A DNA stretch of 64,000 nucleotides from Escherichia phage MN01. The translations under genes and the position numbers were made by a program. The notes below the pieces were generated by a model. It was not told the origin of the DNA. It did no database searches and saw nothing but the letters and a program-made list of their open reading frames with translations. The number at the start of each line of letters is the position of its first letter. The first letter of the stretch is position 1. Where the stretch lies: sequence record MT129652.1; one strand, given 5' to 3'. Positions 18,920 to 62,472 of this stretch are shown here, in pieces.

Positions 18920-19912
18920 ATGACGCGTAACGAATATATCCAGGCCTTTAATACCACTATTGATGCAAAAGTAAAACCATTAATAGGTGAATCGGCTATC
19001 CTTTTAATTATCAATTACTGGTTAAATCAGATTGACTCGACGATTGTTGCATCCGGTCGCTTCAAGAAAGACATTGCGACTATTGCGAGTCGTGCCGGTA
19101 AAGATGATATCAAGAAAACTTTTAAAGGTTCCCGAGTCCTGGCATACCTAGTTAATAAAGACCTTCTTAATAAGTTTGGTGTTGAATCCAGACGTGGTAA
19201 AGGTACAATTGGATATCATTGGTTTGGTGATGTTGAAAAATACTACCTTGATAATCAAGGCTATACTGTTTCTGAATTCGCAAATTGCTGGGCTCGTGAA
19301 TTCAGAGATAACAAAATGTCTATCATCAAATCAGCGACAAAATTGATGGGTGGCGATTATCGCACTATCTCCCATTTGGCTGAGCACATGATAAAGGTTA
19401 AAGAGTCTGGTGCAAACCAGGTAATTATTACAGCTAAGTATGGATTCTTTACGCCAGTGGCTACCCCAGAAAATGTCAAAAAGTATTTTGATGCTGCAAG
19501 TACGCTTACTTCACAGATGCAGTGTGCCCTTAATTATATGCGTACTGTTGAAAAAATTAAAGTAGACCCTATCACCAGTACTCATGGTTGGAAAGGTTGG
19601 AAAATTGTGGTGACATTACGCGAAGTTAAATGTGCAAAGCAACCAACTGTTGCAGAAATCCATAAAAAGAAAAATGAGGAAATTATGAACGCTCCGCATG
19701 AAGTTACCACCCTTGAAGACCTGATTGATAATCTGAATAATGAGCCAGTGAAACAAAAAGCGCCTGAAATTGTTGCCCTGGAAACAGCGTATAATGAAGC
19801 TCTTGCTGTTAATAAAAAAGCAACTGAAGACTATACAAAAGCCAAGCGACTTTGGGAAGAATCAACCAATCGTCTGGATAAACTGGAACAGGCCCTGGAG
19901 CTGCTGAAATGA
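18920..19912 (+). CDS. Hypothetical protein with C-terminal coiled coil
   Basis: 330 aa; C-terminus ...ESTNRLDKLEQALELLK. Confidence 0.55.
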   Translation: MTRNEYIQAFNTTIDAKVKPLIGESAILLIINYWLNQIDSTIVASGRFKKDIATIASRAGKDDIKKTFKGSRVLAYLVNKDLLNKFGVESRRGKGTIGYHWFGDVEKYYLDNQGYTVSEFANCWAREFRDNKMSIIKSATKLMGGDYRTISHLAEHMIKVKESGANQVIITAKYGFFTPVATPENVKKYFDAASTLTSQMQCALNYMRTVEKIKVDPITSTHGWKGWKIVVTLREVKCAKQPTVAEIHKKKNEEIMNAPHEVTTLEDLIDNLNNEPVKQKAPEIVALETAYNEALAVNKKATEDYTKAKRLWEESTNRLDKLEQALELLK

Positions 19913-22015: not shown

Positions 22016-22318
22016 ATGAATTTATTTGAATTTGAAGGTAAAACTATTCGTATTACTGAAGAAGATGTCGACCATTATGTTGACTGGCCTGAATTAAACG
22101 GCAATCGCGGTTTTGAGTCAGGCGAGCTCTGTGAAGGTGCTGAAGTTAAAATCTTGAAGGTGGAGATTTCTCCATGGGGCAATCCTGAAATCATTGGCGT
22201 AACTGCTATCGAATTCAATGGTAAGGTATACGAATACACTAAAGAAATGTTTGAAGATACTAAAGCTTCATTCTGGTGTTTTTGGACTAACGATGATAAT
22301 GAATTTGAGGTCGCATGA
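22016..22318 (+). CDS. Hypothetical acidic protein
   Basis: 100 aa ORF. Confidence 0.5.
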   Translation: MNLFEFEGKTIRITEEDVDHYVDWPELNGNRGFESGELCEGAEVKILKVEISPWGNPEIIGVTAIEFNGKVYEYTKEMFEDTKASFWCFWTNDDNEFEVA

Positions 22319-26072: not shown

Positions 26073-26338
26073 TGCACATCAATCATACAATGATATCCAT
26101 CCAGGACCTGGGAACGTTTTGTGTGGATGAATTCATGAAAATAACATTCTTCCCGCATGCAGAAGGATATGGCTCTTGGGAGTCTCATATCGGCATGTTG
26201 AATGAAGGACAATACCGCAACGAGCATGACCGTCTGATGGAATTCATTAGTGATGCCGAGGTTATTCCTTATATTGACATTCATGAATTTAAGGCAATTA
26301 TGGAGAAGGTCTTTCAGGCTTACTGTTTACTTCGCTAA
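26072..26338 (+). CDS. Hypothetical protein
   Basis: 88 aa ORF. Confidence 0.45.
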   Translation: MHINHTMISIQDLGTFCVDEFMKITFFPHAEGYGSWESHIGMLNEGQYRNEHDRLMEFISDAEVIPYIDIHEFKAIMEKVFQAYCLLR

Positions 26339-26386
26339 TGCTTTGTATCAAGGATGATATAATATTCATATACTAAGTGAGGCGAT

Positions 26387-29591: not shown

Positions 29592-31270
29592 AGACTTTTA
29601 AGCTTAAGAAAGTTATCTATAAAAATATTATGTCGGTTGGTGCTCAACCGATTACTGTTGAACTGGATAAAGTCCAGAAAACTCTGGTCACCGGCAAGAA
29701 TGGTGCGGGTAAATCTACGTTCCTTGAAGCGGTTACTTTTGCTATGTTCGGTAAGCCTTTCCGTGATGTAAAGAAAGGCCAGTTGATTAACTCGAGCAAC
29801 AAAAAAGATATGCTCGTTGAATTGTGGATGGAATATGATGGAAAAGAATACTATATCAAACGCGGGCAAAAACCCAATGTTTTTGAAATCTCTTGTGGCG
29901 GTAAACGTCTTGATGAATCTGCCAGCAGTAAAGACTTCCAAGCGGAATTTGAACAGCTTATCGGAATGTCATACGCCAGTTTCAAACAAATCGTCGTACT
30001 CGGCACAGCTGGATATACCCCTTTTATGGGCCTATCCACTCCTGCAAGAAGAAAACTCGTCGAAGACCTGTTAGAGGTTTCTGTACTGGCCGATATGGAT
30101 AAGCTGAACAAATCTCTTATCCGCGAAGTCAATAGCCAAATCCAGGTTATGGATGTACAGCATGACGGTATCGTTCAACAGATTAAAATCTATCAGGACA
30201 ATGAAGACCGTCAAAGAAAATTGTCAGGTGATAATCTGTTGCGACTGCAAACGATGTATGATGAACTTGCCACAGAAGCACGTGGAATCAAGGCAACTAT
30301 CGAAGAAGCAACGACAAGACTGACTGAAATAATCTTGGGAGAAGACCCCGAGCATGAACTCACGAAGTTAAAGCAGGAATCATTCCTGATTAAATCGAAG
30401 ATTGACGATTATCGAAAGGTTGTCAGCCTGTACGAGAAAGGTGGTTGTTGTCAGACTTGTGCTAGTCAGTTGCATCCAGGAGACCCTATTGTCGCCAGGA
30501 TTGAGTCAAAGATTGAAGAATGTAATGCATCGGCTGATAAGCATAAAGCTCGTCAGAATGCTGTTCAGGAGCAATTTGATACGTATTCTGCTGCAAGACA
30601 AAACCAGCGTACAATAGCACAAGACATTCAAACTAAGAAACAAACCTTAGTCCAGACTGTCGAAAAGGCTAAAAAGGTTAAAGCATTAATCGAGCAAGCC
30701 AAGTCAGAATTCATTGACCACGCAGCAGACATTAAAATGCTTCAAGACCAGCTTGATAAAATAGTCAAACAGAAATCTGACCTTGTGATGGAAAAATATC
30801 AACGTGGTATCCTAACGGATATGTTGAAAGATTCTGGTATTAAGGGCGCGATTATTAAGAAATATATTCCTATCTTTAATAAGCAGATAAACGCTTATCT
30901 TAAAGTTATGGAAGCTGATTATAGCTTTACGTTAGATGAAGAGTTCAACGAAACGATTAAATCTCGTGGTCGTGAAGACTTCAGCTATGCATCATTTAGC
31001 CAGGGTGAAAAAGCTCGTATCGATATTGCATTGCTGTTTACATGGCGCGATATTGCTGCAAAAGTATCTGGTGTGCAAATTAGTACGTTGATTCTGGATG
31101 AGGTCATGGATTCAGCCACTGACGCCGAAGGCATCAAAGCTATCCAGGCAATTATCAATAAATTGGAAGGTCAAAACGTGTTTATCATCAGTCACCGAGA
31201 CCATGACCCAGAAGCATATGGACAGCATCTTCAAATGAAAAAAGTCGGTCGATTTACTGTTCTGGAATGA
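29588..31270 (+). CDS. 46: Recombination ATPase gp46 (Rad50/SbcC-like)
   Basis: GTG start; Walker A TGKNGAGKST, central coiled coil with CxxC zinc hook (GGCCQTCASQ), signature SQGEKARI, Walker B LILDEV; 560 aa as in T4. Confidence 0.93.
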   Translation: MKTFKLKKVIYKNIMSVGAQPITVELDKVQKTLVTGKNGAGKSTFLEAVTFAMFGKPFRDVKKGQLINSSNKKDMLVELWMEYDGKEYYIKRGQKPNVFEISCGGKRLDESASSKDFQAEFEQLIGMSYASFKQIVVLGTAGYTPFMGLSTPARRKLVEDLLEVSVLADMDKLNKSLIREVNSQIQVMDVQHDGIVQQIKIYQDNEDRQRKLSGDNLLRLQTMYDELATEARGIKATIEEATTRLTEIILGEDPEHELTKLKQESFLIKSKIDDYRKVVSLYEKGGCCQTCASQLHPGDPIVARIESKIEECNASADKHKARQNAVQEQFDTYSAARQNQRTIAQDIQTKKQTLVQTVEKAKKVKALIEQAKSEFIDHAADIKMLQDQLDKIVKQKSDLVMEKYQRGILTDMLKDSGIKGAIIKKYIPIFNKQINAYLKVMEADYSFTLDEEFNETIKSRGREDFSYASFSQGEKARIDIALLFTWRDIAAKVSGVQISTLILDEVMDSATDAEGIKAIQAIINKLEGQNVFIISHRDHDPEAYGQHLQMKKVGRFTVLE

Positions 31271-31275
31271 GCCTC

Positions 31276-31992
31276 TTATTGAGGCTTCATTTTGCAGTTA
31301 TCAAAATGCCAACGTTTCATATTAGCTGGCATACCGACTACATTACAGTGTGGACACTGAATTTTGGGGTCCACCTTTTTCTTCCGGTTTGGATTGGATT
31401 TGCAGAATTGTTGGTGAGTGGATATAACACACTTTTTACCTTCAAGCCCGCAAAATTCACAATTTAAAATTTCATGTTTAGCTTGTTTTAAACCTACTGA
31501 AATTTTTTGCTTTTGCTTTTCCGGAATAGTATGAACAACCTTGTTTGGACCTTTGGAACAGTTATCAAAATGCCAACGATTCATATTGCCAGCGAGACCG
31601 GTTTTTCCACAGTGTGGACATTCGACTCTCGGTTTTAATTTGGCGGATTCTGACATTTTCTTTCTGGTTTCATCGGAGAAAATTTTATTTTGTTGAGCTT
31701 CCAAGTTTTTACGACGAAGCCATCCAAATAATTTGTTTTTGCTTCTGTCGGCATTTGGTGCAGAAACTGTCATCATGCGCGCGGCATAGACCAAAGAAGC
31801 GTTATTTGGATGCATTTTGACCAACAGTTGATGGCAAACGAAATGTTCCTCGGGAGTTAAATCAACAAGATTTGAAGCGTCGTCAGCCCCACCCATACAA
31901 CGGGGTATAATGTGATGGCTTTCAGAGTATGTGGTTAATTTGCGATTCAATGCTCTGCTAATAAGCTTTTGGTAAATGATGTTATAATTCAT
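31276..31992 (-). CDS. HNH homing-endonuclease-like protein with duplicated C-terminal zinc fingers
   Basis: Only long minus-strand gene in the region; HNH core SESHHIIPRCMGGADDASNLVDLTPEEHFVCH; repeats CPHCGKTGLAGNMNRWHFDNC and CPHCNVVGMPANMKRWHFDNC; start taken at internal ATG (MNYNIIYQ). Confidence 0.7.
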   Translation of the reverse strand: MNYNIIYQKLISRALNRKLTTYSESHHIIPRCMGGADDASNLVDLTPEEHFVCHQLLVKMHPNNASLVYAARMMTVSAPNADRSKNKLFGWLRRKNLEAQQNKIFSDETRKKMSESAKLKPRVECPHCGKTGLAGNMNRWHFDNCSKGPNKVVHTIPEKQKQKISVGLKQAKHEILNCEFCGLEGKKCVISTHQQFCKSNPNRKKKVDPKIQCPHCNVVGMPANMKRWHFDNCKMKPQ

Positions 31993-32005
31993 ATCAGACC
32001 CTTGT

Positions 32006-32224
32006 TTGATACTGCAACGGATAATATTATTTATGAGCAATTTTTTAACCGGGCAGCATTTACTGGCTGTCCCTGAAATTAAACGGTATGTGTTAGTTAA
32101 TACCTTTTCGAAAGATGAACACCTTGTCACTGAACGTGACTTGCAAAACGCTTTCGGTGAAGAATATGTTAAAATAATCGCGAACAGACACAATGCCTGG
32201 TTCGCATATGAATACTTTGATTAA
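32006..32224 (+). CDS. Hypothetical protein (uncertain; 45.2 position)
   Basis: 72 aa ORF between the HNH gene and rpbA; no motif. Confidence 0.3.
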   Translation: MILQRIILFMSNFLTGQHLLAVPEIKRYVLVNTFSKDEHLVTERDLQNAFGEEYVKIIANRHNAWFAYEYFD

Positions 32225-35427: not shown

Positions 35428-38142
35428 ATGCAAGAATTTTATTTAACTATCGAACAAATCGGTGACAATCTGCTCGAACGATATATTGACAAGAACGGTC
35501 ATGAACGTGTTCGTGAAATCCCTTATGCTCCATGCTTGTTTATGCACGCCCGCGAAGACCAGGCTGCAAAGTATACAGACATCTATAATAAAGGTTGTGT
35601 GAAAAAAGAATTCGATTCCATGCGTGATGCATCCCAGTGGATGAAGCGAATGAATGAAATGGGTCTCGAAGCTATGGGTATGGATGACTTTAAACTCGCA
35701 TACTTGTCCGACCGTTACCCGCACGAAATCAAATACGATTCAAGTAAAATCCGTGTGGCTAACTTCGATATCGAGGTGACATCTCCTGATGGGTTCCCTG
35801 AGCCGTCTGAAGCACGTCACCCTATTGATGCCCTGACACACTATGATTCGGTAGACGATAAATTCTATGTCTTTGACCTTTTGAGCTCACCATACGCCAC
35901 TGTGGAGCAATGGTCTATCGATATTGCTGCCAAGCTGCAAGAAGATGGCGGCGATGAAGTCCCTGAAGAAATCCTGGAAAAAATTGTTTATATGGCTTTC
36001 GATTCAGAAGAAGAAATGCTCCAGCAGTATTTGGTATTCTGGAACGAGAAAACTCCGGTTATGTTAACTGGTTGGAACATCGAGAAGTTTGATATTCCAT
36101 ATATCTACAACCGCCTTAAAAATGTATTTGGTGAAGCTACGGCAAAACGTCTGAGTCCACATCGTCGTACAAAAGTTAAGGTCATTAACAACGGTTTCGG
36201 TGAAGAACAAGAAATCATTCAGATTCTGGGTATCTCTGTTCTGGATTATCTGGACCTGTATAAAAAGTTCAGCTTCACAAACCAACCGTCTTATTCGTTG
36301 GATTATGTTGCGGAATCTGAACTGGGTGTTGGTAAACTCCCGTATGATGGTCCGATTTCTAAACTGCGTGAATCAAATCACCAGCGGTATATTTCTTATA
36401 ACATCATTGACGTTTATCGTGTTGTGCAGATTGACCGTAAGCGGCAGTTTATTAACCTGAGTCAGTCAATGGGTTATTACGCAAAAATGCAGATTCAGTC
36501 TGTATTCAGCCCAATCAAAACTTGGGATGCGATTATCTTTAACAGCCTGAAGACTCAAAACAAAGTCATTCCGGAAACCAAATCGCATGTTCGTCAATCG
36601 TTCCCTGGTGCATTTGTTAAGGAACCGATTCCGAACGCATACAAATATGTAATGAGCTGTGACTTAACATCTCTGTATCCGAGCATCATCCGACAGATTA
36701 ACATCAGTCCAGAAACGATTGCCGGGTCATTTACACCAGCGCCGATGTATGAATACATTGCAGGAACTGCTGACCGCCCATCTGATACATTTAGTTGTGC
36801 TCCAAACGGTATGATGTATTTTAAAGATGTTGCGGGTATTATTCCGACAGAAGTCACCAAGGTGTTTAATCAGCGTAAAGAGCACAAAGGTTATATGCTT
36901 GCGGCTCAACGTAATGGTGAACTGATTAAGGAAGCCCTGCGTAATCCAGGAACTGGTACAACCGAGCCTGAAGTTGATTATCGTTATGACTTCGATGACA
37001 ATATGAAAACAACCTTGCACGGTCTGAATCAAACAGTTCTGAATGGTATGTTGTACAAAGCGCAGATGGAAGAAGTTGCAGGCATGACCGCACAGATTAA
37101 CCGTAAACTGCTTATCAACAGTTGTTATGGCGCTCTGGGTAATATCTGGTTCCGTTACTTTGACCTGCGAAATGCAACCGCGATTACATCTTTCGGACAA
37201 CTTGCATTGCAGTGGATTGAGCGTAAAGTTAACGAATATTTTGATAGTGTTTGCGGTACAAGTGGTGAAACATATGTATTCTATGGTGATACTGACTCCA
37301 TTTATATCCAGTGCGATAACCTGATTAAAAAGGTTGGTGGTGAATCTAAATTCCGCGATACAAACCACCTGGTTGACTTCATGGACAAGTTTGCGAAAGA
37401 CCGTTTGGAACCGGCAATCGATAAAGCTTTCCGTGAGCTGGCTGAATACATGAACAACAAACAGCACCTTATGTTTATGGACCGTGAAGCGATTGCATGT
37501 CCTCCGCTTGGTTCTAAAGGTGTTGGTGGATTCTGGACAGCGAAGAAGCGTTATGCTCTGAACGTGTACGATATGGAAGGCACACGATATGCTGTTCCGA
37601 AACTGAAAATCATGGGTCTGGAAACTCAAAAGTCGAGCACACCAAAAGCATGTCAGAAAGCTCTGAAAGAATGTATCCGCCGTATGTTGCAAGAAGGTGA
37701 AGAATCTCTGCAGACATACTTCAAGGAATTCAATAAGGAATTTAATGAGCTTAACTACATGACCATTGCAGGTGTATCATCGGTTAACAACATCCAGAAA
37801 TATAATGAAGGTGGTTTCCCTGGATTTAAGTGTCCGGCTCATATCAAAGGCGTGCTCGCTTACATGCGTGCAACCAAAGGGTTGAAGACTGTTCCACAAA
37901 TCATGGAAGGGGAAAAGGTGTATGTGCTTCCTCTTAAAGTTGGTAACCCGTTTGGCGAAACCGTGATTGCATGGCCATCAGGGATTGAACTCCCGATTGA
38001 AATTCGTGACCAAGTCTTGCAATGGATGGACTACAACACACTGTTCCAGAAGACTTTTGTTAAGCCATTGACAGGGTTCTCTGAAGCAGCTAAGGTTGAT
38101 TACGAGAAAAAAGCATCTCTTTTTGATATGTTTGACTTTTAA
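35428..38142 (+). CDS. 43: DNA polymerase gp43 (family B, with 3-5 exonuclease)
   Basis: Exo motif FDIEV, polymerase motifs SLYPSII and YGDTDS; 904 aa; strong similarity to T4 gp43. Confidence 0.97.
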   Translation: MQEFYLTIEQIGDNLLERYIDKNGHERVREIPYAPCLFMHAREDQAAKYTDIYNKGCVKKEFDSMRDASQWMKRMNEMGLEAMGMDDFKLAYLSDRYPHEIKYDSSKIRVANFDIEVTSPDGFPEPSEARHPIDALTHYDSVDDKFYVFDLLSSPYATVEQWSIDIAAKLQEDGGDEVPEEILEKIVYMAFDSEEEMLQQYLVFWNEKTPVMLTGWNIEKFDIPYIYNRLKNVFGEATAKRLSPHRRTKVKVINNGFGEEQEIIQILGISVLDYLDLYKKFSFTNQPSYSLDYVAESELGVGKLPYDGPISKLRESNHQRYISYNIIDVYRVVQIDRKRQFINLSQSMGYYAKMQIQSVFSPIKTWDAIIFNSLKTQNKVIPETKSHVRQSFPGAFVKEPIPNAYKYVMSCDLTSLYPSIIRQINISPETIAGSFTPAPMYEYIAGTADRPSDTFSCAPNGMMYFKDVAGIIPTEVTKVFNQRKEHKGYMLAAQRNGELIKEALRNPGTGTTEPEVDYRYDFDDNMKTTLHGLNQTVLNGMLYKAQMEEVAGMTAQINRKLLINSCYGALGNIWFRYFDLRNATAITSFGQLALQWIERKVNEYFDSVCGTSGETYVFYGDTDSIYIQCDNLIKKVGGESKFRDTNHLVDFMDKFAKDRLEPAIDKAFRELAEYMNNKQHLMFMDREAIACPPLGSKGVGGFWTAKKRYALNVYDMEGTRYAVPKLKIMGLETQKSSTPKACQKALKECIRRMLQEGEESLQTYFKEFNKEFNELNYMTIAGVSSVNNIQKYNEGGFPGFKCPAHIKGVLAYMRATKGLKTVPQIMEGEKVYVLPLKVGNPFGETVIAWPSGIELPIEIRDQVLQWMDYNTLFQKTFVKPLTGFSEAAKVDYEKKASLFDMFDF

Positions 38143-38211
38143 GTGTTTACAACGGCAAAGGACTGCCGTATGATTACTCCATCAACTGATGATTAAATTA
38201 AGGATATTAAA

Positions 38212-38454
38212 ATGGAAACATTAATTGCAGGTACTGTTGTTCTTGGCGCTGGTTCTTTCTTCCTGGCTGCACTGGCATATTTTCTGCCGTGGATTATCGC
38301 ACTACTGCGAGGAACCAAAAGTAATTGCGGAATCTTCTTTGTTAACCTCCTGTTAGGTTGGACAATGGTCGGATGGTTTATTGCATTTATCTGGGCACTC
38401 GTTGCTGAGCGTAAATCAAACGCACAAGTAATTATCATCAAGGAAACCAAATGA
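38212..38454 (+). CDS. imm: Imm-like superinfection immunity membrane protein
   Basis: 80 aa, two TM helices, LLGWTMVGWFIAFIWAL motif; immediately downstream of 43 as in T4. Confidence 0.55.
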   Translation: METLIAGTVVLGAGSFFLAALAYFLPWIIALLRGTKSNCGIFFVNLLLGWTMVGWFIAFIWALVAERKSNAQVIIIKETK

Positions 38455-38594
38455 AGATAATTACAATTATTGTACTGACTGCATTTTTTAGTATGTCAAT
38501 CTATTGGGCAATAATGACTCCGCATATGATTCCAACTTTAATTTTGGGTTGGGTATTTTTGGGACTCCAAGCTCGCTATGAATGTTTTAATTGA
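38451..38594 (+). CDS. Hypothetical small membrane protein (47 aa)
   Basis: ATGA overlap with the imm stop; hydrophobic. Confidence 0.3.
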   Translation: MKIITIIVLTAFFSMSIYWAIMTPHMIPTLILGWVFLGLQARYECFN

Positions 38595-38604
38595 GGAAAA
38601 TACA

Positions 38605-39108
38605 ATGAAAAAGTTAGCTATCGCAGCTGTTATGCTGCTATCTGGTTGTGCTTACCAGGGTGATGTTGTTAATGCCAACGAGATTGGTAAAGCGCGAATT
38701 GCTGCAGACCGTCAGGTGCATAATGGTTCCTTTGATTTCAAAGGTGGTACTGGACTTATCTACAAACGCGACAACAATCAATGTGGAAATAACTGCGCGA
38801 AATATGCTCAACGTGAAGTTGAATATCAGCGTGAACAAGCCGCGAAGCATGATGAAGTAATCGCTAAATTGGAAGCAGAAACCAAGCGACAAAATGACCT
38901 GGATACTGTTAACCAGATTTCACAGGTCTGCATGTCATATATCAATATGCAGATAAACATCATGCGTGCAGAAGCTTATCAGGCAGCGGAGACGGGTTCT
39001 CCAAAAGCCAATGAGTATCGCGATATGTATCAGCGTTCTGCTCAAAACCGTCTGAGCTATATTAATAAATGTGTAGCTAAAGAGAAAGCACGCCAAGGTA
39101 TTAACTGA
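38605..39108 (+). CDS. Putative lipoprotein
   Basis: Signal peptide with lipobox MKKLAIAAVMLLSGC after GAGGAAAAT SD; helical/coiled C-terminal region; 167 aa. Confidence 0.55.
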   Translation: MKKLAIAAVMLLSGCAYQGDVVNANEIGKARIAADRQVHNGSFDFKGGTGLIYKRDNNQCGNNCAKYAQREVEYQREQAAKHDEVIAKLEAETKRQNDLDTVNQISQVCMSYINMQINIMRAEAYQAAETGSPKANEYRDMYQRSAQNRLSYINKCVAKEKARQGIN

Positions 39109-39215
39109 TGCTATTATTACTTCTGATTGTTGGAACAGTAATTGGTTTGCTGCTATTAGAAAAGCGTAATAAGCATTTGGCTGAAGAAAACTGGAAACGT
39201 GGAAACGTTTACTAA
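39108..39215 (+). CDS. Hypothetical single-pass membrane peptide (35 aa)
   Basis: MLLLLLIVGTVIGLLLL... ; ATG overlaps the lipoprotein stop. Confidence 0.3.
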   Translation: MLLLLLIVGTVIGLLLLEKRNKHLAEENWKRGNVY

Positions 39216-39242
39216 ATTACTCTGAACTGCGAGAAAAATATT

Positions 39243-39371
39243 ATGATTGGTACGCTATTGATTAGTCTGTGGCTGTTGTCTGCATTTGGTATTGGTTTTA
39301 TGTACTGGTGGGACAAACGTCAGACCCGGAAGATTGTTGAACGTGCAATTAATCGTGGATTCAATCGTTAA
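39243..39371 (+). CDS. Hypothetical single-pass membrane peptide (42 aa)
   Basis: MIGTLLISLWLLSAFGIGFMYWW... hydrophobic N-terminus, basic C-terminus. Confidence 0.3.
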   Translation: MIGTLLISLWLLSAFGIGFMYWWDKRQTRKIVERAINRGFNR

Positions 39372-39450
39372 TTGCTCTAAAAATACAGTGATATAATTAT
39401 CCTATCTTAAACCTGTGAGAAAAATATAATGGTGCCTATGGAAAAAATGA

Positions 39451-40629
39451 ATGTCTATTGCAGATTTGAAATCCCGTTTGATTAAAGCTTCTACATCTAA
39501 AATGACTGCGACTCTTACCAAGTCCAAGTTTTTTAATGATAAAGATGTAGTTCGTACAAAAATCCCGATGCTGAACATTGCAATCAGCGGTGCACTAGAT
39601 GGTGGTATGCAGTCAGGTTTGACTATTTTTGCTGGTCCGTCAAAACACTTTAAATCCAATATGGGTTTAACGATGGTCTCTGCATATATGAACAAATACC
39701 CCGATGCAATCTGTTTGTTCTATGATTCAGAATTTGGTATCACAGAAGCATATCTTCGTGCAATGAAAGTAGACCCGGAACGTGTTATCCATACACCAAT
39801 CCAGTCGGTTGAACAATTGAAAGTTGATATGGTTAACCAGCTTGAAGCAATTGAGCGTGGTGAAAAAGTCATTATCTTTATTGACTCAATCGGTAACATG
39901 GCGTCGAAAAAAGAAACAGAAGATGCGATGAACGAAAAAGTCGTTGGCGATATGACTCGTGCTAAATCCCTGAAATCTCTGTTCCGTATTGTTACCCCAT
40001 ATTTTAGTATCAAGGATATTCCTTGTGTCGCGGTTAACCATACAATCGAGACGATTGAGATGTACAGCAAAACCGTTATGACCGGTGGTACAGGTGTTAT
40101 GTATTCTGCGGACACAGTATTCATTATCGGCAAACGCCAGATTAAAGAAACTGGTAAAGAACTTGAAGGTTTCCAATTTGTTCTGAACGCCGAAAAATCT
40201 CGTATGGTCAAAGAGAAAAGTAAATTCTTCATTGATGTAAAATTCGATGGTGGTATTGACCCGTATTCTGGTCTGCTTGATATGGCAATGGAAATCGGAT
40301 TTGTGGTGAAACCGAAAGTTGGTTGGTATAACCGTGAATATCTTGATGTTGAGACCGGTGAAATGGTCCGCGAAGAAAAATCATGGCGTGCAAAAGATAC
40401 TAACTGCACCGAATTCTGGGGTCCGTTGTTCAAGCACGAACCTTTCCGCGATGCAATCAAACGCCATTACCAACTGGGTGCAATCGATAGCAATGCTGTT
40501 GTTGATGCCGAAGTTGATGCGCTTATTGCCTCCAAGGTTGAAAAATACTCTGCTCCTGAAGGTAAGACAAAACCGTCTGCTGCAGATATCGAAAACGATT
40601 TAGATATGATGGAAGACCTTGATGAATGA
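39451..40629 (+). CDS. uvsX: Recombinase UvsX (RecA-like)
   Basis: MSIADLKSRLIKASTSKMTATLTKSKFFNDKDVV..., Walker A GPSKHFKS; 392 aa vs 391 in T4. Confidence 0.95.
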   Translation: MSIADLKSRLIKASTSKMTATLTKSKFFNDKDVVRTKIPMLNIAISGALDGGMQSGLTIFAGPSKHFKSNMGLTMVSAYMNKYPDAICLFYDSEFGITEAYLRAMKVDPERVIHTPIQSVEQLKVDMVNQLEAIERGEKVIIFIDSIGNMASKKETEDAMNEKVVGDMTRAKSLKSLFRIVTPYFSIKDIPCVAVNHTIETIEMYSKTVMTGGTGVMYSADTVFIIGKRQIKETGKELEGFQFVLNAEKSRMVKEKSKFFIDVKFDGGIDPYSGLLDMAMEIGFVVKPKVGWYNREYLDVETGEMVREEKSWRAKDTNCTEFWGPLFKHEPFRDAIKRHYQLGAIDSNAVVDAEVDALIASKVEKYSAPEGKTKPSAADIENDLDMMEDLDE

Positions 40630-43675: not shown

Positions 43676-43969
43676 ATGAAAAAGTTATTAATCGCGGCAA
43701 TTCTTACCGTAGCATCATGTGGTACAGCTCCAGTTACTGCTGGACTTGATAAAGACCTTTGTGAGTGGTCTATGACTGCCGACCAGACTGATGTTGAACA
43801 TCAGATTTATGCTGATATCATGAACATAACTAAACGTGACCGCCCTGATATGGTTAAAGAAGTATCTGACCAATTGACTTCTGGTGACGTTATGCAGTAT
43901 AACTATGTTCTGTATTGCGATGCTTCATTTGACAATAGCAAAATTGTTCAATGGGTTACAGGTGAATAA
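43676..43969 (+). CDS. sp: Spackle-like periplasmic protein (possible superinfection exclusion)
   Basis: 97 aa with signal peptide MKKLLIAAILTVASCGTAPVTA; same size and position (between 41 and 61) as T4 Spackle. Confidence 0.5.
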   Translation: MKKLLIAAILTVASCGTAPVTAGLDKDLCEWSMTADQTDVEHQIYADIMNITKRDRPDMVKEVSDQLTSGDVMQYNYVLYCDASFDNSKIVQWVTGE

Positions 43970-46706: not shown

Positions 46707-47225
46707 ATGGCTCATTTTAACGAGTGTTCTCAACTGATTGCGGGTGTTGATAAAGCTGAAGAAGCTTATGACAATGCAATTATCGAAGGTACTGACCCGC
46801 TGCAGATTATGCTTGATATGCAGAAATCTTTGCAGGTCCGGTTGGCTACTGAAAAACCAGAATATAACTCACATCCAGATGAATTGGCTACTGCAGGTGA
46901 TGTTGTTACCTGGCTCCGCAACCAGAAAGATTATATTGATGATGAATTCCGCGAACTGATTACTGCATTAGGTGGCATGTCCAATGGCGAGAAAGCTGCC
47001 TCGGCCGTATGGAAACCATGGAAAGCACAACATGGTGAAATGCAGCAAACCCTGATTAACGATTTGTCTCCTGAAGACCAGCTCGAAATTAAATTCGAAA
47101 TGATTGATATCCTGCACTTTGTTCTGAACATGTTCCATGGTCTTGGTCTATCTGCAGAAGAAATCTTTAAACTGTATTACCTGAAAAACGCTGAGAACTT
47201 TGCTCGTCAGGACCGAGGTTATTAA
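46707..47225 (+). CDS. 56: dCTP pyrophosphatase gp56 (MazG-like)
   Basis: MAHFNECSQLIAGVDKA...DPLQIMLDMQ...EDQLEIKFEMIDILHFVLNMF...NFARQDRGY closely matches T4 gp56. Confidence 0.9.
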   Translation: MAHFNECSQLIAGVDKAEEAYDNAIIEGTDPLQIMLDMQKSLQVRLATEKPEYNSHPDELATAGDVVTWLRNQKDYIDDEFRELITALGGMSNGEKAASAVWKPWKAQHGEMQQTLINDLSPEDQLEIKFEMIDILHFVLNMFHGLGLSAEEIFKLYYLKNAENFARQDRGY

Positions 47226-56919: not shown

Positions 56920-57180
56920 ATGAAATACATTAATCGTTCTATTGCCGCGCTGGTGCTGGCGGTTTCATTGGCTGGTTGTACTGATGCAGATAACGCCATT
57001 CGTGTATTAGATGCAAACGGCTATGAGCAAATCCAAATCACCGGTTATAACTGGTTGGGTTGCTCTGAAGATGATTTTCAGCATACTGGTTTTACAGCCG
57101 TAGGCCCAACTGGTAAGAAAGTTAAAGGAACTGTTTGTTCTGGTTTGCTGTTTAAGAATTCAACCATCCGATTTGAATGA
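56920..57180 (+). CDS. Putative lipoprotein
   Basis: Signal peptide with lipobox LAVSLAGC; 86 aa. Confidence 0.45.
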   Translation: MKYINRSIAALVLAVSLAGCTDADNAIRVLDANGYEQIQITGYNWLGCSEDDFQHTGFTAVGPTGKKVKGTVCSGLLFKNSTIRFE

Positions 57181-57592
57181 GGCTATTATGTTTAAAATTG
57201 GAAAGAGTTATTGCATTAAAGATTTAGATGGCTTCCTTAAACATGTCGGTATGCCCGGTAGCATTTTGAACCAACAAGGAACCTCTATTATTGATTTGGT
57301 TACTACCAAAGAGTTTTCAGTCACTAAGATGGAAGCAAATGTTGTTACGGAATTTAGTACTATCGATGGAACTGGATTTTCTTTCCATAGTCGTAATGGA
57401 ACCGGTCTTATTTTTGGTGATGAATTTAAATATTTTGAAGAAACCCCGATAAAGGAATGTGATTCTGAAATAACCGAACAGGAATCAAAAGAGGATATCG
57501 TTGTTACCGGTGGCGATGTTATTATTACGGTTAAAACTGAAGTCGGACGCCTACAAGCTATTAAAATGTTAGAGCAGCTTCGATTCAAATAA
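57173..57592 (+). CDS. Hypothetical protein
   Basis: 139 aa; terminator follows. Confidence 0.45.
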   Translation: MNEAIMFKIGKSYCIKDLDGFLKHVGMPGSILNQQGTSIIDLVTTKEFSVTKMEANVVTEFSTIDGTGFSFHSRNGTGLIFGDEFKYFEETPIKECDSEITEQESKEDIVVTGGDVIITVKTEVGRLQAIKMLEQLRFK

Positions 57593-57635
57593 AAGGCCTT
57601 CGGGCCTTTTTGCTTTAAAATATGTGACTTATAAT
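57593..57635 (+). promoter_or_regulatory. Terminator hairpin followed by a MotA-box middle promoter for gene 39
   Basis: AGGCC-TTCG-GGCCT + TTTTT; TTTGCTTTA, 12 nt, TATAAT (57630-57635). Confidence 0.55.
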
Positions 57636-60237: not shown

Positions 60238-62472
60238 ATGATTTTAGAAACTGAAAAGGAAACAATCCTTGGTAATGGTGCCAAGGCATCAGCATTCACA
60301 ATCCAGGCATCTCCAAAGGTGTTTAAGATTCTGACCAGCGACCTTTACACAAATAAGGTGCGTGCAGTTGTTCGTGAGCTGATTACCAATATGATTGATG
60401 CTCATATGCTCAATGGCTGTCAGGATAAATTCATTGTCCAAGCTCCTGGTGAACTGGACCCACGTTTTGTGTGTCGTGACTTTGGTCCGGGTATGAGTGA
60501 TTTCCAGATTCGTGGTGATGAAAATACTCCAGGTCTGTATAACAGTTTCTTTGCATCATCCAAGGCTGAATCCAATGATTTTATTGGTGGCTTTGGTCTG
60601 GGTTCTAAATCTCCGTTCAGTTATACAGAGACGTTTAGCCTGATTTCGTATCATGATGGCCAAGTTAATGGTTATGTCGCTTATATGGATGGCGATGGTC
60701 CACAGATTAAGCCGACCTTTAGCGAACCAATGAAACCCGGTGACCGTACGGGGATTGAAGTTGTTGTCCCGGTTGATAGTAATGATTTTGGTAAGTTCCG
60801 CCACGAGATTTCATATATCATGCGCCCATTTGCTGGACTGGCTGAAGTACAAGGCGTAGGCGAAATTAATTACTTCCCGGAATTTGATGATTATTATGCT
60901 CCAGAGCGTATTGATTATAGCAGCCCAGAACGTTATGGTCTTTATGCAATTTACGGTGGAATTGTTTATCCAATTGCCGACGGTTATACAAAGAAAACCT
61001 GGATGACCGCCAAAAATGATGTTGTCTTTATTAAGTTCCCGATGGGTTCGTTGGATATTGCACCTTCTCGCGAAGCATTATCACTGGATAAACGTACGGT
61101 CGCAAATATCGTTGAACGTATTGAATCCCTTGATAAGAAAGTCATGGAAGATGATTGTAAGAAATGGCAGGAATCAGAATGTATCCGCCACACGTATCGC
61201 GAATTACAGAGTCTGAGTTATGAAGCTCGTAATTTTCTGAAAGCTCGTAATGCTGAAACGAAATTTACGAAATCGCAATTGACCTTTAACCAGATGTATG
61301 AAATGTTCGAGCTGGACAAAGACCTTATTAATGCCGGGGTTGTCTATGATATCTATAGCACTACCCGTCTGAAACGTCTGCGTAACTCAAGCTCGAACAC
61401 GAATACTGCAAGCCTGACGAGCATGTTTGGTATTCAGAATAATACCTTGAACATTGTTATTGACGATGCTAAAGGGCGAATTGCGATGATTCGGGGCATC
61501 AGTTCAATGCTGTATGACACCAGCGCGAAAGCCAAAAAGCTCAAAGCATCTGGTAAAGTCCCGACTGTACAAGGTAGTAGTCTATTGTTCGTTGACCCAA
61601 CCAGCGAAATTCAAACACGTCTGATGGTTCAACTTCAAGAACGATTTAAAGGCGATACAGTTAATATCTATCGTACGTCTGAACTGACCGCCCTTGTAAA
61701 AGACTGGATTCCGGTTGCTGACCCGAAAGCGCGCGTTAAGTCAAAGACTCCATCATTGATTCGTTGGACTAAAACTAATGGCAAATGGCAGTCTGTTGAA
61801 GAATTTACATGTGCAGCTGATGCAGAGGAAATCGATGGTTATGCTGTATTCATTAACCGCAGTAGCATTTCCCCGTTGAATCAAGAATATGGCACCACGA
61901 CCTTCGGGACCCAGACATTGTGTAAACTGGCAAACCTGTTGGAAATCAATGAATTCTGTGTTATTCGTCCACAGCTTCAGAAAAAGGTTACCAAGCTGGC
62001 GCAGTGTGATTGTTTGATTGAAGCTGCAGTCAATCGTTATGTGGAATTGATTGATTCAGTTGATGCGGACCAGTACATTGCCGCTTCAAGCCGTTCGCGT
62101 TATTATATTCCTATCCTGTCTGAATATGCGGAACTGAATTTTATGTTCAAGTATTTTTATGCAAAAGATGTTCAGAAAGATGTGAATACTGACTATGCCG
62201 AACTAATGCAGTTCAATAAGTTCTTTGCTTATAACGCATATAACAGTGGAACGGTTGATAAGACCATGCAGGAAACTCTGGTCCTTTGTAATAAGATTTA
62301 TGACGACCTGACCAAAAACGCTTCGGTAACAAGTGATAAAATGGTTTTTGAATTTGAAAAGAATCACCCGATTGTTTCACACTTTTTATATAACCGTAAC
62401 GCCATGTCAACTGAACAAGTACAGAACGTTGCTCAAATCATGAAGGCCGTGGAAGCGGCCAATAAGGAATAA
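60238..62472 (+). CDS. rIIA: rIIA protein (membrane-associated, GHKL-type ATPase domain)
   Basis: N-terminal N-box ELITNMIDAH and G-box DFGPGMS; 744 aa (T4 rIIA about 725 aa); followed directly by an rIIB-like gene. Confidence 0.8.
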   Translation: MILETEKETILGNGAKASAFTIQASPKVFKILTSDLYTNKVRAVVRELITNMIDAHMLNGCQDKFIVQAPGELDPRFVCRDFGPGMSDFQIRGDENTPGLYNSFFASSKAESNDFIGGFGLGSKSPFSYTETFSLISYHDGQVNGYVAYMDGDGPQIKPTFSEPMKPGDRTGIEVVVPVDSNDFGKFRHEISYIMRPFAGLAEVQGVGEINYFPEFDDYYAPERIDYSSPERYGLYAIYGGIVYPIADGYTKKTWMTAKNDVVFIKFPMGSLDIAPSREALSLDKRTVANIVERIESLDKKVMEDDCKKWQESECIRHTYRELQSLSYEARNFLKARNAETKFTKSQLTFNQMYEMFELDKDLINAGVVYDIYSTTRLKRLRNSSSNTNTASLTSMFGIQNNTLNIVIDDAKGRIAMIRGISSMLYDTSAKAKKLKASGKVPTVQGSSLLFVDPTSEIQTRLMVQLQERFKGDTVNIYRTSELTALVKDWIPVADPKARVKSKTPSLIRWTKTNGKWQSVEEFTCAADAEEIDGYAVFINRSSISPLNQEYGTTTFGTQTLCKLANLLEINEFCVIRPQLQKKVTKLAQCDCLIEAAVNRYVELIDSVDADQYIAASSRSRYYIPILSEYAELNFMFKYFYAKDVQKDVNTDYAELMQFNKFFAYNAYNSGTVDKTMQETLVLCNKIYDDLTKNASVTSDKMVFEFEKNHPIVSHFLYNRNAMSTEQVQNVAQIMKAVEAANKE

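Follow-up and report, generated by a model that had tools for sequence, protein, structure and literature searches.

Between gene 43 and uvsX, Escherichia phage MN01 probably carries an ordinary T-even imm region, with the cytosine-modification genes missing

We analysed a 64,000-nucleotide stretch of Escherichia phage MN01 (MT129652.1), hereafter the window, which belongs to a Gaprivervirus, a VR7-like relative of T4, and has 97% nucleotide identity to phages TH40 and vB_EcoM_RZ (RZ), in which the same ORFs are already annotated. Between gene 43 and uvsX lie five closely spaced ORFs, all on the plus strand; the original prediction had listed these same five, and every one was recovered where it had been placed. 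The interval, its flanks and related features are:

35428–38142, plus strand: gene 43, the left flank (60% identity to T4 gp43)
38146–38174, plus strand: early-type sigma-70 promoter-like site (TTTACA, 17 nt, TATGAT; consensus scan, 10/12 matches, weak as a match alone because the scan finds fewer sites than in shuffled sequence)
38212–38454, plus strand: imm, 80 aa
38451–38594, plus strand: ORF for a 47-aa two-helix membrane protein
38605–39108, plus strand: lipoprotein gene, 167 aa (the mechanical ORF, 38578–39108, is 176 aa)
39108–39215, plus strand: ORF for a 35-aa single-pass peptide
39227–39245 and 39413–39431, plus strand: two copies of a 19-nt direct repeat, CTG(C/T)GAGAAAAATAT(T/A)ATG (repeat search, 17/19 identical)
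39243–39371, plus strand: ORF for a 42-aa single-pass peptide
39373–39397, plus strand: middle-promoter-like site for uvsX (MotA-box-like TGCTCTA, 12 nt, TATAAT; read from the sequence)
39451–40629, plus strand: uvsX, the right flank (79% identity to T4 UvsX)
43676–43969, plus strand: spackle (sp) homologue (placed by colinearity with VR7 sp at 19233–19526)
46707–47225, plus strand: intact gene 56, dCTPase/dUTPase (tblastn with T4 gp56, 67% identity over 172 aa, E 1.5e-77)

Codon-usage scores place imm, the lipoprotein gene and the 42-aa ORF above all 111 wrong-frame ORFs, and are borderline for the 47-aa and 35-aa ORFs (0.07 and 0.06, respectively, against the same set). Stop and start codons overlap where imm meets the 47-aa gene (ATGA) and where the lipoprotein gene meets the 35-aa gene (TGATG). 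By hydropathy analysis, Imm and the 47-aa protein each have two hydrophobic stretches, whereas each small peptide has a single one, at its N-terminus. The early-type promoter-like site begins four bases 3′ of the gene 43 stop and contains a 6-bp stem in its spacer (ACGGCA/TGCCGT, 38152–38169); it probably drives one tightly packed transcript, whose early timing we infer from this site. The downstream edge of the cluster is marked by the site ahead of uvsX, which we take to be a putative middle promoter from its agreement with the T4 middle-promoter consensus and which is invariant in five of five haplotype representatives. Rfam returned no match on 37900–39700, and a terminator-like hairpin occurs only once, within the 47-aa ORF, a count at chance level.

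The cluster is headed by a genuine Imm orthologue, preceded by an AAGGA ribosome-binding site. Its product matches Pfam PF14373 (Imm_superinfect; E 1e-17, model positions 2–42 of 42) and phrog_1039 (E 1.8e-30) and is 68% identical to Imm of Dhakavirus JS98; because the PF14373 score (64.2 bits) exceeds the cut-off of 27.9 and identity to T4 Imm reaches 52% over the full length (83 aligned positions), a superinfection-exclusion function is well founded for this gene. The part of the original prediction that saw an exclusion module here therefore stands for imm, and found no supporting evidence for the other four genes. The roles of Imm and Sp in superinfection exclusion have been described for T4 (PMC7677548, PMC6832632). 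MN01 Imm, with hydrophobic stretches at about residues 3–33 and 39–66, would insert in the inner membrane and, by analogy with T4, most likely blocks DNA entry of later-arriving T-even phages, acting alongside the separately encoded Spackle. The gene for the latter, the second T4 superinfection-exclusion gene, is situated in MN01 4 kb downstream of the cluster and outside it.

The 47-aa protein, whose gene was named ‘42.1’ by the VR7 annotators and has counterparts in RB69 ORF054c and JS98 orf44, matches phrog_3610 over its full length (positions 1–47 of 47, E 2.7e-26). Fifteen positions are invariant across five genera, including IYW, P..MIPTL and a C-terminal CFN. The T4 homologue is an unannotated 49-aa ORF between imm and gene 42, which likewise overlaps the imm stop through ATGA and is 57% identical to the MN01 protein over 30 aa. 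On sequence grounds, we identify the 47-aa product as a conserved Tevenvirinae envelope protein that is not always linked to imm.

For the lipoprotein, a GAGGA ribosome-binding site lies 8 nt upstream of the ATG at 38605, so the product is the 167-aa protein originally described and not the 176-aa mechanical ORF. The prediction of a lipoprotein with a helical C-terminal domain was likewise upheld, by a lipobox (LSGC, with Cys15) and by an AlphaFold2 model (mean pLDDT 73) that combines a β-hairpin with a long helical hairpin; the helical C-terminal part spans residues 60–163 or thereabouts, and pLDDT exceeds 90 from about residue 100. The protein is probably lipidated at Cys15 and, since residue +2 is Ala, its predicted destination is the outer membrane, where it probably resides. 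Four additional Cys are conserved (60, 64, 109 and 156), and two disulfides probably staple the protein. Like the 47-aa product, it is a conserved Tevenvirinae envelope protein, with relatives in other genera, that does not always accompany imm.

The same protein matches phrog_1754 (E 6.2e-47; residues 10–170 of the 176-aa ORF on profile positions 2–147 of 148). Aligned with hhalign to T4 Imm.1, using a profile built without T4 Imm.1, it gives 96.3% probability (E 1.8e-9, 92 columns), a signal that comes partly from the signal peptide and the motif right after it. Pfam DUF5481 (PF17578), which scores 234.6 bits with the T4-type sequence P0016, does not match the MN01 lipoprotein at E up to 1; a bridging sequence (P0037) was found by the lipoprotein family profile and has a weak DUF5481 match of its own (E 0.001). 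The lipobox and matching Cys positions are common to the MN01 protein and Imm.1. We conclude from the hhalign result, the bridging sequence, the Cys pattern and synteny downstream of gene 43 that the lipoprotein is, as far as its sequence can tell, a remote relative of T4 Imm.1.

Searches for a function returned little. An exhaustive search of 1.84 billion representative proteins with the lipoprotein profile yielded only 24 relatives, and a Pfam scan of ten of them gave no domain beyond the weak match of P0037. Foldseek comparison of the model with the PDB produced nothing below E 1 and generic helical hairpins only, comparison with BFVD recovered the protein’s own family only, and a profile search of PDB sequences was empty. 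In NCBIfam the only match, to a putative T6SS immunity lipoprotein family, lay in the signal peptide and scored 16.9 bits, short of the cut-off of 43; PADLOC returned no match, and neither sequence nor fold searches pointed to receptor binding. The envelope-remodelling role that had been proposed gained no support for the lipoprotein, the 47-aa protein or the peptides, for which Pfam, PHROGs, NCBIfam, PADLOC, PDB sequence search and Foldseek supplied no functional lead.

Neither the 35-aa nor the 42-aa ORF has homologues beyond Gaprivervirus, and neither matches Pfam or PHROGs; the 42-aa peptide has a basic C-terminal tail. Four haplotypes occur: both ORFs (RZ, TH40 and MN01), the 42-aa ORF only (VR7), the 35-aa ORF only (VR25) and neither (SP18 and EAWsc9). 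The 35-aa ORF is intact in RZ, VR25, phage 212 and UPEC01, with 1–3 synonymous and 0–3 non-synonymous codon changes, and the 42-aa ORF is intact in RZ, VR7, phage 212 and VR20, with an invariant stretch of 31 C-terminal residues. These distributions mark the two peptides as apparently genus-restricted accessory genes, carried as separate presence/absence cassettes. Through the 19-nt repeat, the start context of the 42-aa ORF duplicates sequence preceding uvsX, and the repeat may have a role in cassette gain and loss. A preprint on the Emp peptide that mentions Gaprivervirus was considered and set aside; it concerns a 109-aa protein adjoining motA, at a different locus.

As predicted, no ORF in the interval is big enough for gp42 or a glucosyltransferase, and T4 gp42 and beta-gt match nothing in the window. 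Searching beyond the locus, with alpha-gt and JS98 orf38–42 added, revealed no credible homologue in the window, complete VR7 or the rest of RZ. We used tblastn, which left only chance-level matches (E 0.05–0.5), and phmmer on every six-frame ORF of 60 aa or more (VR7; window plus RZ), which reported no match up to E 10; the one ThyA-fold gene in the window, VR7 and the rest of RZ is td. Genome-wide, this absence covers the 64 kb of MN01, the remainder being read from the relatives VR7 and RZ. Because these closest relatives held no cassette gene, the discovery of gene 42 or glucosyltransferases elsewhere, which the original prediction had named as grounds for abandoning it, did not come about. 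Published work also reports that gp42, the hmC enzyme, is absent from the genus Gaprivervirus (PMC8056088, PMC12115623). The position between the trio of imm, 47-aa and lipoprotein genes and uvsX is occupied in JS98 by the cytosine-modification cassette and in T4 by genes 42 and beta-gt. In the Mosigvirus- and Kanagawavirus-type relatives examined, cassette and core genes are interleaved between gene 43 and uvsX. The cluster adjoins uvsX because Gapriverviruses lost this cassette. In T4 the hmC genes stand alongside homologues of the three core genes; nothing was therefore replaced in MN01, and the idea that the cluster stands in place of the hmC genes has to be given up.

With gene 42 missing, the intact gene 56 becomes relevant. 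DenB, Alc, Ndd and dNMP kinase are listed in the VR7 and RZ annotations, and a restriction-digest study found the cytosines of VR7 DNA to be modified but unglycosylated (PMC6326788). A dCTPase kept and cytosines modified without the cassette raise the possibility of a non-ThyA enzyme. That Gapriverviruses make a cytosine derivative through such an enzyme, with the 43–uvsX interval as the scar of the lost cassette, is a tentative proposal to which we give clearly less than even odds. In a non-exhaustive search for a replacement enzyme, Pfam analysis of ten VR7 ORFs without T4 names and ten window ORFs identified only DUF7275/DUF7277, a T5orf172/MUG113 domain and a PinA-like inhibitor. PDB sequence searches with three candidates gave chance-level matches or none, T4 Dam had no homologue, and a crude scan detected no motifs of C5 or N4/N6 DNA methyltransferases.

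Could the five genes instead form one coherent, novel exclusion or envelope-remodelling device in the hmC slot, in which Imm and the hairpin protein, in the inner membrane, cooperate with helper peptides and a lipoprotein of the outer membrane? A membrane or exported location is predicted for each of the five products, the genes are packed behind one promoter-like site with stop/start overlaps, and T4, JS98 and Gapriverviruses all keep imm together with genes for the small hairpin protein and an Imm.1-type lipoprotein. Yet the core genes occur independently, with 1248 phage records for Imm, 549 for the 47-aa gene (tblastn matches) and 120 for the lipoprotein, and with imm and the 47-aa gene 10.7 kb apart in the Mosigvirus CAU_ECP01; gene order differs between T4 and MN01, and members of the genus can do without the two small peptides. 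In Kanagawa-, Winkler- and Kagamiyamaviruses the order is gene 43, lipoprotein, arabinose-5-phosphate isomerase, 47-aa ORF and nucleotidyltransferase, so that in Kanagawa-type phages the lipoprotein and 47-aa genes lie on either side of a sugar isomerase gene and imm is not found between them. Against this record, a single device seems to us improbable. The position of the 47-aa gene between the isomerase and nucleotidyltransferase genes, seen in RB69-like, PEi20, CHI14 and EcS1 phages, and inside the arabinosylation cluster of Mosig-, Kanagawa- and Winklerviruses, would suit a protein, perhaps together with the lipoprotein, that is functionally part of the DNA-modification pathway. Nevertheless, both T4 (glucosyl-hmC) and Gapriverviruses, which have no arabinosylation cluster, retain the gene and its 15 invariant residues, and its product is a hydrophobic hairpin whose 47 residues would not accommodate a catalytic domain; we regard a place in that pathway as very unlikely.

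The placement of a small inner-membrane protein gene directly 5′ of the lipoprotein gene bears a superficial likeness to an i-spanin/o-spanin arrangement, which would make the two a lysis pair with no role in exclusion or envelope protection. That T4-type spanin genes (pseT.3 and pseT.2) are located elsewhere in VR7 and RZ, that the candidates sit in the early region behind an early-type promoter-like site, that the mature lipoprotein (about 150 aa) is helical and predicted to be Cys-stapled with no C-terminal membrane segment, and that neither protein matches a spanin PHROG or Pfam family leave this explanation hardly credible. A less remote doubt concerns the two small ORFs, which might be chance ORFs in a variable spacer generated by recombination between repeated regulatory sequences: they have no relatives outside the genus and no family match, their presence varies between near-identical phages, the codon score of the 35-aa ORF is borderline, and the 19-nt repeat borders the 42-aa cassette. 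However, no examined carrier has a disrupted copy of either ORF, in most comparisons synonymous changes equal or outnumber non-synonymous ones, and the C-terminal tail of the 42-aa peptide is fully conserved. The codon score of the 42-aa ORF lies above those of all 111 null ORFs, both ORFs have plausible ribosome-binding sites, the 35-aa start overlaps the lipoprotein stop, and several depositors have annotated them; we consider chance origin unlikely.

The reading that we favour, with a probability of roughly 75%, is that the MN01 cluster represents the usual imm region of a T-even Gaprivervirus, one that annotators have already recorded. Its only unusual trait is that the cytosine-modification genes are missing, a puzzle already noted in print; this absence, like the gene identities, homologies and synteny, is shown by the analysis. 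The trio of imm, 47-aa and lipoprotein genes appears from the comparisons to be ancestral. As with every function and protein location that we infer here, the roles of the two other core products would be conditional, and our best guess is that the 47-aa protein and the lipoprotein both support protection of the infected cell envelope and are not obligate partners of Imm; a weaker alternative is that these two proteins and Imm form an envelope-spanning complex.

In itself the cluster is of minor importance, its gene set being annotated in dozens of deposited Gaprivervirus genomes and imm being a textbook T4 exclusion gene. Annotators may find use in the distant relationship that the lipoprotein appears to have with T4 Imm.1, in the unannotated and widely conserved 49-aa membrane-protein gene of T4, and in the two tiny peptide genes, each of which seems to be present or absent independently of the other. 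The broader question, of a T-even phage that retains dC-exclusion machinery without a ThyA-type dCMP-modifying enzyme, has already been raised in the literature, and the MN01 locus gives no answer to it.

Comparison with known systems places the locus among its relatives. The phage-encoded envelope lipoproteins Llp of T5 and Cor, which block receptors to achieve exclusion and are made after infection or from a prophage, offer a possible analogy for how the MN01 lipoprotein might act; they have no sequence relationship to it (the phrog_1119 (Cor) match, E 0.026, is confined to the signal peptide) and no fold match. The T4 imm region (order 43, imm.1, imm, 49-aa ORF, 42, beta-gt) has the same three gene families in the same interval, but there the lipoprotein gene precedes imm and the small ORF, whereas in MN01 it follows them, and Imm.1 has 126 aa against 167 aa. 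After the trio, T4 continues with 42, beta-gt and segA, and MN01 with two small peptides and then uvsX. JS98 (order 43, imm, orf44, orf43, orf42–orf38, uvsX) is closer: its orf45 (imm), orf44 and orf43 have a gene order identical to that of MN01, and its small protein and lipoprotein show 56% and 54% identity, respectively. Its trio is followed by a five-gene, 4.2-kb arabinosylation cassette, orf42–orf38 (including a ThyA-like gene and genes of RB69 type for sugar activation and transfer), which is wholly absent from the MN01 window, and JS98 in turn lacks the 35-aa and 42-aa ORFs. Closest of all are the published Gapriverviruses VR7, SP18, RZ and TH40, which share 92–97% nucleotide identity over the locus, have imm, ‘42.1’ and the lipoprotein gene annotated alike, and vary only in the two small ORFs, of which RZ and TH40 carry both, like MN01.

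The interval between gene 43 and uvsX carries five ORFs, a layout that was predicted originally and is borne out by ORF calls, by hydropathy (two hydrophobic segments each in Imm and the 47-aa protein, a single segment in either short peptide) and by the LSGC lipobox of the lipoprotein. Escherichia phages TH40 and vB_EcoM_RZ share 97% identity with the locus (38100–39460), and VR7, VR20, VR26 and SP18 share 92–96%; all are T-even phages of the genus Gaprivervirus. Genes on the + strand of the window run 45, 44, 62, regA, 43, cluster, uvsX, 40, 41, opposite in orientation to the T4 map.

Features of the 43–uvsX interval, and the spackle homologue
End 38142, + strand: gene 43, upstream edge of the interval
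38146–38174, + strand: promoter-like site TTTACA-17-TATGAT (consensus scan)
38212–38454, + strand: imm (ORF call)
38451–38594, + strand: 47-aa ORF (ORF call)
ATG 38605 (mechanical ORF from 38578), + strand: lipoprotein gene, GAGGA ribosome-binding site ahead of the 38605 ATG
39108–39215, + strand: 35-aa ORF (ORF call)
39243–39371, + strand: 42-aa ORF (ORF call)
Start 39451, + strand: uvsX, downstream edge of the interval
43676–43969, + strand: spackle homologue (ORF call and relation to VR7)

Starting the lipoprotein at 38605 gives a 167-aa product, as annotated by other depositors. Stop and start codons overlap between imm and the 47-aa ORF (ATGA) and between the lipoprotein gene and the 35-aa ORF (TGATG). 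Ahead of uvsX, the sequence TGCTCTA, 12 nt, TATAAT (39373–39397) is presumably a middle-promoter-like site with a MotA-box-like TGCTCTA, assigned from the T4 middle-promoter consensus. Directly after gene 43, the spacer of the early-type promoter contains a 6-bp stem (ACGGCA/TGCCGT, 6-nt loop, 38152–38169), loosely resembling promoter-plus-stem-loop cassettes described in T4-type phages.

The T4 interval goes on with 42, beta-gt and segA, whereas in JS98 the three core genes (imm, orf44, orf43) are followed by orf42–orf38 and then uvsX. The JS98 record labels orf42–orf38 as RB69 orf052c-, 051c-, 045c-, 048c- and 047c-like; a recent study established RB69 gp48, part of an arabinosylation cluster, as a 5-hydroxy-dCMP synthase (PMC13326640). 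T4 gp42 and beta-gt have no match in the 64-kb window, in line with the expectation that the interval lacks both gp42 and a glucosyltransferase. Searches by tblastn, and by phmmer against all stop-to-stop segments of 60 aa or more, extended this absence to the relatives: neither complete VR7 nor the window combined with the rest of RZ holds a homologue of T4 gp42, alpha-gt, beta-gt or JS98 orf38–42, and td is the only ThyA-fold gene found there. Because no cassette homologue occurs anywhere searched and the trio precedes the cassette in JS98, sequence comparison indicates that the cluster is a conserved neighbour of the modification genes, not their replacement, and that it is the cassette that was lost. 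In itself, the cluster is ordinary and has been annotated before. The original prediction of a superinfection-exclusion or envelope-remodelling module where T4 carries its hydroxymethylcytosine (hmC) genes thus stands as to the presence of Imm and the absence of modification genes, and falls as to a substitute for them.

Imm matches Pfam PF14373 above cut-off (E 1e-17) and shares 52% identity with T4 Imm over the full length. T4 Imm is an inner-membrane protein produced immediately after infection, and together with periplasmic Spackle confers superinfection exclusion (PMC7677548, PMC6832632); by analogy, the window Imm would do the same job. The three core genes are probably not one obligate module. 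Imm occurs in 1248 phage records, small siphoviruses among them, and the lipoprotein in 120; in Mosigvirus CAU_ECP01, 10.7 kb separates imm from the 47-aa gene, and in Kanagawa-type phages the lipoprotein and 47-aa genes lie on either side of a sugar isomerase gene, and imm is not found between them. T4 and this phage also arrange the trio in different orders.

The 47-aa protein falls in phrog_3610 (E 2.7e-26), with 15 invariant positions across Gapriver-, Dhaka-, Winkler-, Kanagawa- and Kagamiyamaviruses. By tblastn it is present in 549 phage records, where the matching region often lacks annotation. Its T4 homologue is a 49-aa ORF, MKSKIIAALLLILMIIISIYYSVTVPLMIPTIILGWSLLLLQVKYECIN, in the 153 bp that separate imm from gene 42 (minus strand, 6377 down to 6228 of the T4 locus L004, NC_000866 about 26227–26376; 57% identity over 30 residues, E 3e-10), which overlaps the imm stop by ATGA exactly as in the window. 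The T4 RefSeq record does not annotate it, nor do many Tequatrovirus records.

The lipoprotein is a member of phrog_1754 (E 6.2e-47). Dhaka-, Winkler-, Kanagawa- and Kagamiyamaviruses encode homologues immediately after gene 43 or imm, and when 1.84 billion proteins were searched exhaustively with a profile, no more than 24 relatives emerged. A family profile built with T4 left out matches T4 Imm.1 (96.3% probability, E 1.8e-9, 92 columns), a 126-aa lipoprotein of Pfam DUF5481 encoded between 43 and imm, and one of the 24 relatives (P0037) also matches DUF5481 weakly. Since the Pfam model itself fails to match the window lipoprotein, we class it by sequence as remotely related to DUF5481 and outside the family proper. 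The AlphaFold2 model (mean pLDDT 73) comprises a disordered tether, a β-hairpin at 41–55 and a long helical hairpin, with confident modelling from around residue 100 onward, which upholds the predicted helical C-terminal domain; structure searches of PDB and BFVD found nothing similar outside its own family. The protein would be exported by Sec and lipidated, with outer-membrane sorting suggested by Ala at +2, and Cys 60, 64, 109 and 156, conserved in addition to lipobox Cys15, may form two periplasmic disulfides. Since the genus encodes pseT.3/pseT.2 spanins at another site and the cluster lies in an early region, the cluster lipoprotein and membrane protein are unlikely to act as spanins. 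At a guess, the 47-aa protein and the lipoprotein might both help to protect the envelope.

The 35-aa and 42-aa ORFs occur, by DNA similarity, in Gapriverviruses only, and alignment of the lipoprotein gene–uvsX spacer resolves four haplotypes.

Haplotypes of the spacer
Both ORFs: this window, RZ, TH40, TH44, phage 212, DCP80, pEC-M719-6WT.2
42-aa ORF only: VR7, VR20, VR26, CJ20, DK-13, P479
35-aa ORF only: VR25, UPEC01, TH41
Neither ORF: SP18, EAWsc9 and others

In all carriers examined the two ORFs are intact, with synonymous changes equalling or exceeding non-synonymous ones in most comparisons, and the 42-aa peptide keeps its basic tail unchanged throughout. The codon-usage score of the 42-aa ORF is higher than that of any of 111 wrong-frame control ORFs, and that of the 35-aa ORF is borderline. 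The start context of the 42-aa ORF duplicates sequence ahead of uvsX as a 19-nt repeat (39227 and 39413), which would fit gain or loss of the 42-aa cassette by recombination between short repeats.

Elsewhere, the window departs from VR7 at several places. A 305-aa ORF (31276–32193, minus strand, between gene 46 and 45.2/rpbA), whose only Pfam match is a weak zinc-ribbon (E 1e-3), lies mostly in a 773-bp segment (31269–32041) that has no VR7 match; the ORF may be a mobile insertion. Next to gene 39, a 139-aa ORF (57173–57592) has no Pfam match; the segment in which it lies, 57184–57609, is absent from VR7, which has an ORF annotated 'endonuclease VII' at this position. A 100-aa ORF (22016–22318) with a PinA peptidase-inhibitor domain (PF10465, E 2.9e-6) also sits in a segment without VR7 match. 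The window lacks VR7ORF135c (VR7 60683–61333), an annotated restriction endonuclease: at about 2478 the alignment jumps from VR7 61340 to 60689. The 744-aa rIIA ORF (60238–62472) is two overlapping CDS in the RZ record (L020 10059–12288), probably through a frameshift or sequencing error.

The cytosine question is interesting but has been published before, and the five cluster genes have no bearing on it. Two earlier surveys found the gp42 (hmC) enzyme missing from Gapriverviruses, which keep dCTPase, DenA, DenB, Ndd and Alc, and both propose an unknown non-canonical base (PMC8056088, PMC12115623). A limited search of genus-specific ORFs gave no substitute cytosine-modifying enzyme. In VR7 (L010 36496–37243) and RZ (L019 22493–23276), full-length alc has a second short Alc-like ORF (77–88 aa) immediately upstream, which may be a partial duplication or split gene and could be relevant to the treatment of cytosine-containing DNA. 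Between 56 and 61 the window, unlike T4, has no dam homologue. Gene 56 (46707–47222) is intact, its product being 67% identical to T4 gp56, above DNA polymerase (60%) and primase (59%); the corresponding value for VR7 is 76%, and gene 56 is therefore mosaic within the genus. From restriction digests, VR7 cytosines are reported to be modified but unglycosylated (PMC6326788), and BREX blocks VR7 fully, as it does non-glucosylated T4 (PMC6326788 and supplement).
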